Source: Escherichia coli
Lineage (GTDB): Bacteria; Pseudomonadota; Gammaproteobacteria; Enterobacterales; Enterobacteriaceae
Length of the DNA stretch: 64,000 nt
NCBI RefSeq assembly: GCF_003334355.1
Contig: NZ_QOWP01000015.1
Reading direction: 5' to 3' (one strand)
Below are positions 24,435 through 63,876 of this stretch, piece by piece. The translations under genes were made by a program, and so were the position numbers. How positions within the stretch are numbered: the first letter of the stretch is position 1; each line of letters starts with the position of its first letter. The notes beneath the pieces are model-generated. The model was not told the origin of the DNA and made no database searches. It saw only the letters and a list, made by a program, of their open reading frames with translations.

Positions 24435-25631
24435 ATGCTAAAAGTGTTATTACTCTTTGTTTTGCTGATTGCGGGGATAGTGGTTGGCCCGATGATTGCC
24501 GGTCATCAGGGTTATGTGCTGATCCAAACCGACAACTACAATATCGAAACCAGCGTCACGGGCCTGGCGATCATATTGATTCTGGCGATGGTAGTGCTGT
24601 TTGCCATTGAGTGGCTACTGCGGCGGATCTTCCGCACTGGCGCGCACACCCGTGGGTGGTTTGTCGGGCGTAAGCGTCGCCGTGCACGTAAGCAGACCGA
24701 ACAGGCGCTGCTGAAACTGGCGGAAGGCGATTATCAGCAAGTTGAAAAGCTGATGGCGAAAAATGCCGATCACGCTGAACAACCGGTGGTGAACTATCTA
24801 CTGGCTGCCGAAGCCGCGCAACAACGTGGTGATGAAGCGCGCGCCAACCAACATCTGGAACGCGCAGCGGAGCTGGCCGGCAATGACACCATTCCGGTAG
24901 AAATCACCCGTGTACGTCTGCAACTGGCCCGTAATGAAAACCATGCTGCACGCCACGGCGTGGATAAGCTGCTGGAAGTTACGCCACGCCATCCGGAAGT
25001 ATTACGTCTGGCGGAACAGGCGTATATCCGCACAGGTGCATGGAGTTCTCTGCTGGATATCATCCCATCAATGGCGAAAGCCCATGTTGGTGATGAAGAA
25101 CATCGTGCAATGCTGGAACAACAGGCATGGATTGGCCTGATGGATCAGGCGCGTGCCGATAACGGTAGTGAAGGTTTGCGTAACTGGTGGAAAAACCAAA
25201 GCCGGAAAACGCGTCATCAGGTAGCGTTGCAGGTGGCAATGGCGGAACATCTTATTGAATGTGACGATCATGATACTGCCCAGCAAATTATCATCGATGG
25301 CCTGAAACGCCAGTACGACGATCGCCTACTGCTGCCGATTCCTCGACTGAAAACCAACAATCCGGAACAGCTGGAAAAAGTGCTGCGCCAGCAGATCAAA
25401 AACGTCGGCGATCGCCCGCTGTTGTGGAGCACACTGGGCCAGTCACTGATGAAGCACGGAGAATGGCAGGAAGCATCGCTCGCCTTCCGCGCAGCGCTGA
25501 AACAACGTCCGGACGCCTACGATTACGCATGGCTTGCCGACGCGCTGGACAGACTGCACAAGCCGGAAGAAGCTGCAGCGATGCGTCACGACGGTTTGAT
25601 GTTAACGTTGCAGAACAACCCACCACAGTAG
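24435..25631 (+). CDS. hemY: HemY, TPR-containing inner-membrane protein
   Basis: 398-aa ORF with two N-terminal TM helices and TPR-like repeats. Confidence 0.85.
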   Translation: MLKVLLLFVLLIAGIVVGPMIAGHQGYVLIQTDNYNIETSVTGLAIILILAMVVLFAIEWLLRRIFRTGAHTRGWFVGRKRRRARKQTEQALLKLAEGDYQQVEKLMAKNADHAEQPVVNYLLAAEAAQQRGDEARANQHLERAAELAGNDTIPVEITRVRLQLARNENHAARHGVDKLLEVTPRHPEVLRLAEQAYIRTGAWSSLLDIIPSMAKAHVGDEEHRAMLEQQAWIGLMDQARADNGSEGLRNWWKNQSRKTRHQVALQVAMAEHLIECDDHDTAQQIIIDGLKRQYDDRLLLPIPRLKTNNPEQLEKVLRQQIKNVGDRPLLWSTLGQSLMKHGEWQEASLAFRAALKQRPDAYDYAWLADALDRLHKPEEAAAMRHDGLMLTLQNNPPQ

Positions 25632-25678
25632 TTCCTTCTCACCCGGGGGCAAGCACCTCCGGGGCCTTCCTGACACAT

Positions 25679-25885
25679 AAAAAAACGCCTGCTCTTATTA
25701 CGGAGCAGGCGTTAAAACAGGTCTGTATGACAACAAGTGGGTGCTTCACTCAACGTTGTGTCCATGGTGTCTGATGAGGCATAAGCGACATCTGTCAGTG
25801 GACGATAAGCACCGTAAACGGCTCTGCGTCATTCCGGAGTTTATGAGGCACTAAGGCGAACATAAGAGATGGAATGAGCATCTAC
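25679..25885 (-). ncRNA. glmZ: GlmZ small RNA (activator of glmS translation)
   Basis: Minus strand reads GTAGATGCTCATTCCATCTCTTATGTTCGCCTTAGTGCC...GCCTGCTCCGTAATAAGAGCAGGCGTTTTTTT with terminal hairpin and U-run; matches recalled GlmZ sequence. Confidence 0.85.
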
Positions 25886-26309
25886 TCGTTTATTATGCCA
25901 CAGAGAATCGGGAAATAACATCCCTTAACACTTGTTATGAGATAATTCTGTAATCCTCTTTGCTTCCTGAGTAATAACTTCCTGAGTGAATATTTAACCT
26001 GAGCTTGATCCTACACATACTTATTATGAATGATAAAATTCATTCAATTAATAACACATATATTAATTGCCGTTAAAACTAAAAACAGCATCAATAATCA
26101 ACGCGATATAATAAACCTGCCTTACATATCAACTGCGCCAGAGGTAGGATTGAAAACGCTCTCCTGATTTTCCAATTCATTTTCTGGATAAATAAATAAT
26201 TTATTTTTGTCACTATTATTTATGTAATCATCCTGTCAGGGAGAGGGATCTCAATTATCAATGCTTAATTACGTCATCATTTTGATGACATGAAACCGGA
26301 GCATTTTGC

Positions 26310-26471
26310 ATGGAAATTTCGTTTTCACCCAAACGTCTTGTTGTTGCTGTCGCCGCCGCTCTTCCTCTCATGGCCAGCGCAGCAGATACCCCGTCAACTG
26401 CCACCGCACGCAAAGGCTTTGCCGGATACGATCACCCAAACCAGTATCCACAGAACGCTGCAATTTATTGA
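26310..26471 (+). pseudogene. aslA: truncated arylsulfatase aslA remnant (signal-peptide region only, about 53 codons)
   Basis: ATG at 26310 encodes [53 protein letters not shown] then stop; spacing from glmZ 5' end matches the expected aslA start, but the ORF ends about 1.5 kb short of a full sulfatase. Confidence 0.6.
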
Positions 26472-26485
26472 ATTTGCACGATCAT

Positions 26486-26520
<35 letters not shown>

Positions 26521-26554
26521 ATCAACCGCAGGCGGCCACAAAATGGCCGCTTTT

Positions 26555-27790
26555 TTACTTACTCACCACCAGCAAATGCGCATGCATAATGTCACTGGCC
26601 GGGCGACCGTGCGCCAGCAAATCAGCCATTGCTTTAAGATATGGCGGTAGATGGCGGAAATAACGCTGATACCCGGCACACAAATAATTCAGCCCCGGTT
26701 TGCCTCTGGCATCGAGCATGAAGCGGTGTTTCGGGCAGCCTCCCCAGCACGCTTTTAACACGTTACAACTGCGACACTGCGCCGGTAATTGCTTAAATTT
26801 ATCTTCACCAAACGCCTGCTGTTGCGGGGAATCGATCATTTCTGCAATTGTTTGCTGGTGCATATTCCCCAGCCGATATTGTGGATAAACATAGTGATCG
26901 CAGGCGTAAACGTCGCCGTTGTGCTCAACAATCACCGAGCGCCCACAGGTTGGCTGATGATGGCAAACCGCACCCGGCGCACCGACAAAATTGGCAAACG
27001 CCCATTCGATATTCATCACGAAAATCTTGCCGACGTCGCGTTTAATCCAGTGGTCGAATATCGCCACCAGAAATTCACCGAACTCCTCGGGGCGCACCGA
27101 CCATTCCGTTAGCTCACCCTGAATATCACCAGGCGCATGCAATTTCAGTCCTTCGCGGGCAGCCATTTCATCAGCCAGGCGCTCGACCACCGGAATAAAC
27201 TGGATGAATTCCACTCCCGCATCGCACAAAAAATCATATACCTGCAACGGTTGCTGCGCGCTGGTGCGATTAACGCAGACCAGCACGTTATAGTCGACAT
27301 GATGTTTTTGCAGCAGCGTCAGGGCACGCATCACCAGCTTATGCGTGGGTCTGCCACCTTTAGTCACGCGATATTGATTGTGGATCTCAGGCGGACCATC
27401 CAGCGATAAACCAACAAGAAAATGATGCTCCGCGAGAAACGCGCACCATTCGTCATCCAGCAGCACGCCGTTAGTCTGGAAGCTGTTACTTATCTTCCTG
27501 CCAGCACCATATTTCGCCTGTAGCGCTACGGCACGGCGGTAAAACTCCAGCCCGAGTAGCGTTGGTTCGCCGCCCTGCCAGGTAAAAGCCACTTCGTTTT
27601 GCAGTTCGCTGGCGGCGATATAGTGACGGATATACGCTTCCAGCGTGTCATCGTCCATATGCGTGACTGGCTTTTCGCGGTAAAGGGATTGTTTTTCGAG
27701 ATAAAAACAGTAGTCACAGTTCAGATTACAATCGGAACCACTCGGTTTCGCCATCACATGAAAAGCACGCGTTGGAACCTGTTGCAGCAT
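26555..27790 (-). CDS. aslB: radical-SAM anaerobic sulfatase-maturating enzyme homolog
   Basis: 411 aa from MLQQVPTRAFHVMAKPSGSDCNLNCDYCFY (CxxxCxxC radical-SAM motif); ORF-track start 27820 is an upstream in-frame alternative. Confidence 0.85.
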   Translation of the reverse strand: MLQQVPTRAFHVMAKPSGSDCNLNCDYCFYLEKQSLYREKPVTHMDDDTLEAYIRHYIAASELQNEVAFTWQGGEPTLLGLEFYRRAVALQAKYGAGRKISNSFQTNGVLLDDEWCAFLAEHHFLVGLSLDGPPEIHNQYRVTKGGRPTHKLVMRALTLLQKHHVDYNVLVCVNRTSAQQPLQVYDFLCDAGVEFIQFIPVVERLADEMAAREGLKLHAPGDIQGELTEWSVRPEEFGEFLVAIFDHWIKRDVGKIFVMNIEWAFANFVGAPGAVCHHQPTCGRSVIVEHNGDVYACDHYVYPQYRLGNMHQQTIAEMIDSPQQQAFGEDKFKQLPAQCRSCNVLKACWGGCPKHRFMLDARGKPGLNYLCAGYQRYFRHLPPYLKAMADLLAHGRPASDIMHAHLLVVSK

Positions 27791-27936: not shown

Positions 27937-28013
27937 TGGTCGGCGAGAGAGGATTCGAACCTCCGACCCACTGGTCCCAAACCAGTTGCGCTACCAAGCT
28001 GCGCTACTCGCCG
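27937..28013 (-). tRNA. proM: tRNA-Pro
   Basis: Reverse complement reads CGGCGAGTAGCGCAGCTTGGTAGCGCAACTGGTTTGGGACCAGTGGGTCGGAGGTTCGAATCCTCTCTCGCCGACCA. Confidence 0.9.
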
Positions 28014-28054
28014 AAATACTGCTTTTTGAATTTTTAGTTCAATTCTTTAAAGTC

Positions 28055-28141
28055 GTGGTGCGAGGGGGGGGACTTGAACCCCCACGTCCGTAAGGACACT
28101 AACACCTGAAGCTAGCGCGTCTACCAATTCCGCCACCTTCG
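28055..28141 (-). tRNA. leuT: tRNA-Leu (CAG)
   Basis: Reverse complement reads GCGAAGGTGGCGGAATTGGTAGACGCGCTAGCTTCAGGTGTTAG...CCCCCCCCTCGCACCA (87 nt, long variable arm). Confidence 0.9.
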
Positions 28142-28161
28142 CATTGTCACAACTTCTAATA

Positions 28162-28238
28162 ATGGGGTGGCTAATGGGATTCGAACCCACGACAACTGGA
28201 ATCACAATCCAGGGCTCTACCAACTGAGCTATAGCCAC
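28162..28238 (-). tRNA. hisR: tRNA-His
   Basis: Reverse complement reads GGTGGCTATAGCTCAGTTGGTAGAGCCCTGGATTGTGATTCCAGTTGTCGTGGGTTCGAATCCCATTAGCCACCCCA. Confidence 0.9.
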
Positions 28239-28296
28239 CACTACAAATCTTGTTACGCGGTATTACTACCACCGCAGCTCAAGCGCCGGGACTAAA

Positions 28297-28373
<77 letters not shown>

Positions 28374-44657: not shown

Positions 44658-44987
44658 TTACGCCAGGTTAGCGTCGAGGAACTCTTTCAACTGACCTTTA
44701 GACAGTGCACCCACTTTGGTTGCCGCCACTTCACCGTTTTTGAACAGCAGCAGAGTCGGGATACCACGGATGCCATATTTCGGCGCAGTGCCAGGGTTTT
44801 GATCGATGTTCAGTTTTGCAACGGTCAGTTTGCCCTGATATTCGTCAGCGATTTCATCCAGAATCGGGGCGATCATTTTGCACGGACCGCACCACTCTGC
44901 CCAGAAATCGACGAGGATCGCCCCGTCCGCTTTGAGTACATCCGTGTCAAAACTGTCGTCAGTCAGGTGAATAATTTTATCGCTCAT
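44658..44987 (-). CDS. trxA: thioredoxin 1
   Basis: 109 aa from [41 protein letters not shown] (WCGPC active site). Confidence 0.95.
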
Positions 44988-45117
44988 ATATAACTCCACA
45001 GGAATAAGCCTGGCGTGTTGGTTTCGTTGTTGGTGTAACATTAACCAACTAAAGGTTGACTTTATTTCACCGGATACGCTTTCGTAAAGCAATAGTAAGC
45101 TGATATTCTACCACACT

Positions 45118-60426: not shown

Positions 60427-60778
60427 TTTGTCTTTTCTTGCATCTTGTTCGAAGGAATGCCTAAAGAGTTACCATAGATTTTGCGAATAGCACAAGATAT
60501 TTTTTGGCCGATTTTTATGATGCGTTTAATAATTTCAATAGAAATTGTTGTTTTTTAAAAAGAAAATAGTGAGTGAAAAAAATTCAATTTCAGTATGAAT
60601 GTTGTTCCCTTCCTAGTAGTTCATCCTTTGTCCGCTGCATTTTTGCGAGCATCATTCCACCGCCAGAACAACTCAACTTCACTTGCACAAATAAACAGGA
60701 ATCAGCCACTAAAATTCACGAATTAGCGGGCTACAGCAGCGATATCTTATGCACATAATAGTGACTCAAGGAGGGCTT

Positions 60779-63715: not shown

Positions 63716-63791
63716 TGGCAGGGGCGGAGAGACTCGAACTCCCAACACCCGGTTTTGGAGACCGGTGCTCTACCAATTGAACTACGCCCCT
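63716..63791 (-). tRNA. trpT: tRNA-Trp
   Basis: Reverse complement reads AGGGGCGTAGTTCAATTGGTAGAGCACCGGTCTCCAAAACCGGGTGTTGGGAGTTCGAGTCTCTCCGCCCCTGCCA. Confidence 0.9.
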
Positions 63792-63799
63792 AATTAGGG

Positions 63800-63876
63800 T
63801 GGCGGAACGGACGGGACTCGAACCCGCGACCCCCTGCGTGACAGGCAGGTATTCTAACCGACTGAACTACCGCTCC
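63800..63876 (-). tRNA. aspT: tRNA-Asp
   Basis: Reverse complement reads GGAGCGGTAGTTCAGTCGGTTAGAATACCTGCCTGTCACGCAGGGGGTCGCGGGTTCGAGTCCCGTCCGTTCCGCCA. Confidence 0.9.

Follow-up and report, generated by a model that had tools for sequence, protein, structure and literature searches.

GlmZ (SraJ/RyiA, b4456; Rfam family RF00083) plays a central part in regulating how cell-envelope precursors are made. In Escherichia coli K-12, this small RNA (sRNA) is made as a primary transcript of 207 nt, is processed to a form of ~151 nt and pairs with glmS at positions -41 to -19 (PMC4152352). The cleavage by RNase E is guided by RapZ, which is in turn sequestered by the sRNA GlmY, and GlmZ is assisted by Hfq (PMC4152352, PMC7073468). 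GlmY (RF00128) is placed in the same Rfam clan, has two similar 5' stem-loops and is bound by RapZ as GlmZ is, but differs in having no glmS-pairing linker (PMC4152352). In Salmonella and Yersinia, a homologous GlmZ occupies the same place beside hemCDXY, with its stems maintained through compensatory changes.

The locus described here lies within a 64,000-nucleotide stretch of E. coli DNA (the window), the relevant features of which are collected in Table 1. Searching the whole window with Rfam cmscan at the gathering threshold returned RF00083 (GlmZ_SraJ) at 25679..25885 on the minus strand, with 218.4 bits against a gathering threshold of 60 (E 3.4e-56); the match covers positions 1-214 of the 214 in the model and is not truncated. 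A permissive local Rfam scan recovered GlmZ again (E 6.8e-58) and gave no other match of note inside glmZ. The sequence is identical in 207/207 nt to positions 3986432..3986638 of K-12 MG1655 (blastn), and its 5' end, where the RNA starts with GTAGATGCTCATTCC at 25885, coincides with the annotated start of b4456 at 3986432 in K-12. The initial annotation had assigned GlmZ to the minus strand at 25679-25885, which the full-length covariance-model match and the K-12 identity bear out to the base. In addition, the fold of the whole RNA is more stable than that of shuffled sequences (MFE z-score -3.3).

Table 1 Features of the glmZ locus and its surroundings, with positions in the window
Feature	Position	Strand	Basis or detail
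hemY	24435..25631	+	ORF list; PGAP annotation of a 99.9% identical genome; convergent with glmZ
glmZ primary transcript, 207 nt	25679..25885	-	+1 is G at 25885; Rfam and K-12 identity
glmZ intrinsic terminator	25679..25713	-	11-bp GC-rich stem 25713..25684 and T7; terminator scan
Single-stranded linker with putative glmS-pairing site, nt 149-170	25716..25737	-	predicted duplex; unpaired in the consensus fold
Putative RapZ/RNase E processing site, ~nt 151	about 25735	-	published K-12 processing (PMC4152352)
Stem-loop 2 (central), nt 73-146	25740..25813	-	helices 5-7 paired in 92-100% of 42 sequences
Stem-loop 1, GlmZ nt 1-65	25821..25885	-	CM alignment and RNAalifold consensus, 42 species
aslA-glmZ intergenic region, 424 bp	25886..26309		32.5% GC; identical to K-12
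Extended -10, TGgCATAAT	25892..25900	-	sequence; CATAAT at -12..-7 (25897..25892), TG at -15/-14 (25900..25899)
Putative -35 hexamer, ATGTTA	25916..25921	-	sequence inspection; 3/6 matches, 18-bp spacer
aslA stub	26310..26471	+	46 native codons to 26448, 7 foreign codons, stop at 26469-26471
REP element followed by terminator-like hairpin and T6	26485..26557	+	terminator scan; overlaps the aslB stop codon
aslB, intact gene for anaerobic sulfatase maturase	26555..27790	-	ORF list and PGAP annotation of a 99.9% identical genome; convergent with the stub

The overall arrangement is that of the K-12 GlmZ locus, with the same 207 nt, the same 424 bp upstream, the same promoter and terminator, a convergent hemY and a divergent aslA start. 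Gene and promoter show no differences from K-12, whereas two SNPs fall in the 47-nt spacer between glmZ and hemY and the upstream neighbour aslA is mostly deleted. Because gene and promoter are identical, the published K-12 experiments apply directly to this copy; what was found there on promoter activity, on the ends and the processing of the transcript and on the parts played by Hfq, RapZ and GlmY is thus expected to hold here by virtue of that identity. Judged by its sequence, the copy represents the K-12 reference allele and is an already known member of the GlmZ family. Taken as a whole, the region is almost certainly the chromosomal glmZ, with a promoter of the K-12 sigma-70 type and a place in the circuit that would activate GlmS.

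For comparison across species, species-representative genomes were scanned once with a 5' DNA motif (15 specified bases), which yielded 120 loci, and these were filtered by similarity to GlmZ nt 41-207, the region outside the search motif. True homologs numbered 41 of the 120, with 68-99% identity over nt 41-207, and come from Escherichia albertii, Citrobacter, Enterobacter, Kluyvera, Pantoea, Erwinia, Serratia, Yersinia, Photorhabdus, Morganella and others. The motif itself was not selective enough: some two thirds of these loci were chance matches in unrelated phyla, which the similarity filter removed. The resulting alignment holds 42 sequences, in some of which the 3' end was set by hand because internal T-runs mislead automatic trimming.

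On this alignment the Rfam structure is paired in 87.7% of cells, as compared with 34-39% in slid controls, where the partners were moved by 1-3 columns. Changes on both sides are seen at 18 pairs of the Rfam structure, and on four of five measures none of 500 shuffles came up to what was observed; on the remaining measure, further standard pair types, 138 of 500 did. RNAalifold independently recovered the same architecture, with the linker unpaired, and found 21/47 pairs to be compensatory. The two 5' stem-loops and the terminator stem-loop are kept by covariation, most of which lies in stem-loop 2 (both-sided changes in 10/16 pairs) and in the terminator, where compensatory changes occur at 8/11 stem pairs across species. 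No variation is seen at the base of stem-loop 1, in part as a result of the search motif, which fixed that portion of the RNA; elsewhere in stem-loop 1, compensatory UA>CG changes are found at alignment columns 13/69. Cross-species variation in GlmZ also includes many indels, which are located in loops.

At the top of stem-loop 1, the Rfam consensus projected from the cmscan alignment gives five non-canonical pairs in E. coli, and over nt 14-53 (25872..25833) the RF00083 register is paired in only 28% of cells across the 42 Enterobacterales sequences. A register shifted by approximately one position (columns 13-15/67-69, 21-25/56-60 and 29-30/52-53) is nearly 100% paired and shows compensatory changes. 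On account of the five non-canonical pairs, the Rfam register was set aside here for that of RNAalifold. The apical loop of stem-loop 1 carries a 15-nt insertion in a Yersinia GlmZ.

The linker between stem-loop 2 and the terminator is predicted to form a duplex with positions -41..-21 of K-12 glmS, made up of an 8-bp and a 7-bp helix (dG -19.2), in agreement with the published site (PMC4152352). The pairing target was the K-12 glmU-glmS junction, the strain's own glmS lying outside the window, as do rapZ, glmY and hfq. Shuffles of the linker gave a duplex as good as that with glmS in 13/1000 cases, which is modest by itself, and when 28-nt segments are taken along the whole of GlmZ, those that pair best all begin at nt 149-154. 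A duplex prediction of full-length GlmZ against the entire glmU-glmS junction, in which shuffled sequences scored better, was replaced by this linker-restricted test. The RNA contains a single-stranded linker complementary to the K-12 glmS leader, which is the trait that separates GlmZ from GlmY.

In the proposed circuit, a constitutive sigma-70 promoter would give rise to a 207-nt RNA composed of two 5' stem-loops, the single-stranded linker and an intrinsic terminator. Together with Hfq, the linker (nt ~149-170) would pair with the glmS leader at -41..-21 and open the hairpin masking the ribosome-binding site of glmS, such that more glucosamine-6-phosphate synthase would be made. When glucosamine-6-phosphate is plentiful, the adaptor RapZ would deliver GlmZ to RNase E, and a cut within the linker at ~nt 151 would remove the pairing site; under scarcity of glucosamine-6-phosphate, RapZ would be sequestered by the decoy sRNA GlmY and full-length GlmZ would accumulate. 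We infer the RapZ-dependent processing to ~151 nt and the Hfq-dependent activation of glmS in this strain from K-12 identity only. The GlmZ sequences of Photorhabdus (two loci) and Morganella (one locus) lack the conserved TGTTGTC half of the pairing site but keep the GACCTG half (columns 186-195), a pattern suggesting that pairing with the glmS leaders of these species is shorter or shifted.

The GC content of the region upstream of glmZ contrasts with the 52.3% of the whole window, and at 424 bp the region agrees with the AT-rich stretch of ~420 bp in which the initial annotation had located the glmZ promoter. Indeed, the identical K-12 sequence has been dissected by deletions, which put that promoter within -40..+1, corresponding to 25886..25925 here (PMC3045617). 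In K-12, transcription of glmZ proceeds from one constitutive sigma-70 promoter within -40..+1, sequence beyond -40 being dispensable (PMC3045617, Göpel et al.); the promoter is lost once the sequence upstream of -20 is removed, and mutation of the -35 or the -10 lowers or abolishes expression, the -10 mutation abolishing it (PMC3045617). We infer that ATGTTA serves as the -35 hexamer, a placement that fits the published description of three consensus-matching bases (PMC3045617). The glmZ promoters of Salmonella and Yersinia are dependent on sigma-54 and GlrR, with an overlapping sigma-70 promoter in Salmonella, whereas the promoter in the window appears to be recognized by sigma-70 only (PMC3045617). 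In K-12, GlrR does not bind the glmZ fragment from -424 to +32, and deletion of glrR or rpoN has no effect (PMC3045617). In agreement with this, the 424 bp upstream of glmZ hold no GlrR site of the form TGTC-N10-GACA with two or fewer mismatches, and no sigma-54 promoter was found in the upstream sequence near the glmZ +1. In its sequence the promoter is of the Escherichia type, with sigma-70 elements only and no GlrR sites.

The same 424 bp had been said to hold, of necessity, the aslA promoter as well. This is a reasonable proposal because aslA is divergent from glmZ and no co-directional gene lies immediately upstream, but the word "must" goes further than the evidence: a sigma-70 consensus scan of the intergenic region (25886-26309) gave 3 sites where 2.3 +/- 1.4 are expected, which is chance level, and the aslA promoter was not located. 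One plus-strand site is present at 26012..26039, to be read against a scan total at chance level in AT-rich DNA. The scan also missed the real glmZ promoter, because the -35 of the latter is too weak for the scan rule. Formally, transcripts in the aslA direction could also stem from hemY, which has the same orientation as aslA, by read-through past the terminator of glmZ.

At the 3' end of GlmZ, the terminator hairpin has a dG of -19.8 kcal/mol. Both the hairpin with its U-run, seen as the 11-bp stem and T7, and the distance of about 45 nt to the hemY stop had been described beforehand; the spacer measures 47 nt (25632-25678). On this side of the gene, hemY is convergent downstream of glmZ in 32/33 of the other Enterobacterales species' loci with enough flank. 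An aslA-like gene is found upstream in 3/41 loci, or in 2/28 when at least 1.5 kb of upstream flank is available, which agrees with the published account that the upstream side of glmZ is variable (PMC3045617). On the hemY strand, the spacer contains an 8-bp GC hairpin at about 25642..25663, and the glmZ terminator hairpin is then followed by only UUAAAA. Termination of hemY probably relies on the spacer hairpin together with the glmZ terminator hairpin, without a good U-run. Both spacer SNPs relative to K-12 lie in 25632-25678, and one of them is inside the GC hairpin.

Each of the 5426 complete E. coli genomes contains sequence that matches the region, with strain 720632 matching best (99.9%). 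glmZ is at least 99% identical in 5425 of the 5426, with a median of one copy each. Among 25 sampled RefSeq records, nearly all have no annotation at glmZ, which is consistent with the earlier description of the gene as invisible to the ORF track; two carry a "hypothetical protein" over it. The K-12 RefSeq record (NC_000913.3) gives glmZ as only 172 nt, 3986432..3986603, corresponding to 25885..25714 of the window and stopping before the terminator hairpin, as against the 207 nt of the literature and the Rfam match. The glmZ copy in the window adds no new biology. Rather, the call serves as a quality check, in that a textbook sRNA was read from raw sequence with exact ends at a place that automated RefSeq annotation usually leaves blank.

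On the far side of the intergenic region, 1579 bp are missing with respect to K-12 (blastn), and only the first 139 nt of aslA (26310..26448) remain, as the description of a truncated aslA remnant had anticipated. The deletion joins aslA to sequence that in K-12 lies 62 bp past the stop codon of aslA, at the margin of a REP element, with the junction at 26448/26450, and PGAP classes the resulting stub as an incomplete arylsulfatase pseudogene. An identical junction occurs in 1729/5426 complete E. coli genomes (about 32%), and the deletion is therefore an old and common allele, in which the maturase gene aslB is left intact but orphaned. A hairpin with a 9-bp stem (26530..26552, plus strand; dG -15.1), followed by T6 to 26557, lies between the stub and aslB, and at 26489..26552 the Rfam scan gave a naRNA4/REP match below threshold. 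With its T6 on the plus strand, the hairpin is predicted to terminate transcription in the aslA direction; on the aslB strand no T-run follows it. The hairpin and T6 are also found downstream of full-length aslA in ETEC1749 and O157:H7 86-24, which identifies them as a native terminator-like element that the deletion retained; a stub transcript would consequently run into the terminator-like signal that the full-length mRNA also meets.

Two other identities for the 207-nt stretch itself were considered. The paralogous decoy sRNA GlmY shares one Rfam clan (CL00011) and its overall fold with GlmZ, and a lower-scoring overlapping clan match was indeed present before it was removed, yet the GlmZ model, with 218 bits, won the clan competition, K-12 glmZ (b4456) has the identical sequence, and the glmS-complementary linker is one that GlmY does not possess (PMC4152352). 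Moreover, the neighbours are hemY and aslA, and the place beside hemY is that of glmZ (PMC3045617), GlmY being encoded upstream of glrK. The clan score, the K-12 identity and the linker together rule out GlmY, for which we see practically no chance. That the stretch is instead protein-coding is extremely improbable. Here the candidate is a GTG-initiated ORF of 116 codons in the ORF list (25424..25774, plus strand) that overlaps glmZ, and the two sampled records with a "hypothetical protein" under the glmZ match point the same way; against this, the ORF has its start within hemY, in a different frame, and crosses the terminator of glmZ in antisense, and most PGAP records have no annotation at glmZ. 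The cross-species changes also track RNA base-pairing through compensatory double changes and place indels in loops, with no codon pattern, and the coding reading of the overlapping plus-strand ORF was rejected.

With GlmZ retained as the identity of the stretch, it may still be asked whether the truncation of aslA altered local transcription, either through a stub transcript that reads antisense through aslB, as the initial annotation had proposed, or through an effect of the new context on glmZ. The stub keeps its start codon and complete upstream region, it points at aslB from a distance of about 84 nt, and its RNA would be untranslated past the premature stop. However, the near end of the deletion is 563 bp away from the glmZ +1, whereas glmZ expression needs only -40..+1 (PMC3045617), and the REP element with the hairpin and T6 (26530..26557, plus strand), the same element that follows intact aslA elsewhere and for which terminator activity is predicted, still stands between the stub and aslB. 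In addition, aslA and aslB are convergent in all the E. coli strains compared, including K-12, which is the ancestral layout, and transcription toward aslB is therefore no consequence of the truncation. The antisense proposal is weakened accordingly: the truncation as such gives no grounds for expecting aslB to be newly transcribed in antisense, and altered local transcription as a whole is unlikely. A more specific scenario, which we regard as a long shot, is that the retained aslA promoter region, start codon and 53-codon ORF (a signal-peptide-like N-terminus with a short tail) are still expressed, yielding a small exported peptide or a short transcript that ends at the REP element and terminator, and that this would affect aslB, or glmZ via interference between the divergent promoters.

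The reading preferred here, a K-12-type glmZ beside a long-standing deletion allele of aslA, leaves the latter as a common strain polymorphism that bears on the scoring of aslA for virulence or invasion (PMC11879602) and not on glmZ. A literature search for a described aslA deletion allele gave only papers on the presence or absence of the gene or on its association with virulence, and no account of this deletion junction. Studies that score aslA as an invasion-associated trait probably read this deletion polymorphism (PMC11879602).

K-12 itself lacks 9 bp of the hairpin just past the aslB stop (comparison locus L002, about 2195-2215), where K-12 reads GGCGGCCGCCGATTTCT in place of GGCGGCCACAAAATGGCCGCTTTTTT, while the full hairpin and T6 (26530-26557) are present in the window, ETEC1749 and O157:H7 86-24. 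This loss may have weakened the K-12 terminator in the aslA direction.

Beyond aslB, which is adjoined by a cluster of four tRNAs (Arg-His-Leu-Pro, 27940-28373, minus strand), the window contains two further tRNAs near its end (63719-63876, minus strand). O157:H7 86-24 has an extra tRNA-Leu in the argX-hisR-leuT-proM cluster (comparison locus L006, 4107-4419), giving five tRNAs as against four in the window and K-12. Two other RNA elements score above the Rfam threshold, namely a TrxA 5' UTR thermometer at 44958-45057 (minus strand, 78.8 bits) and Rev39_5p_UTR at 60208-60497 (minus strand, 157 bits).
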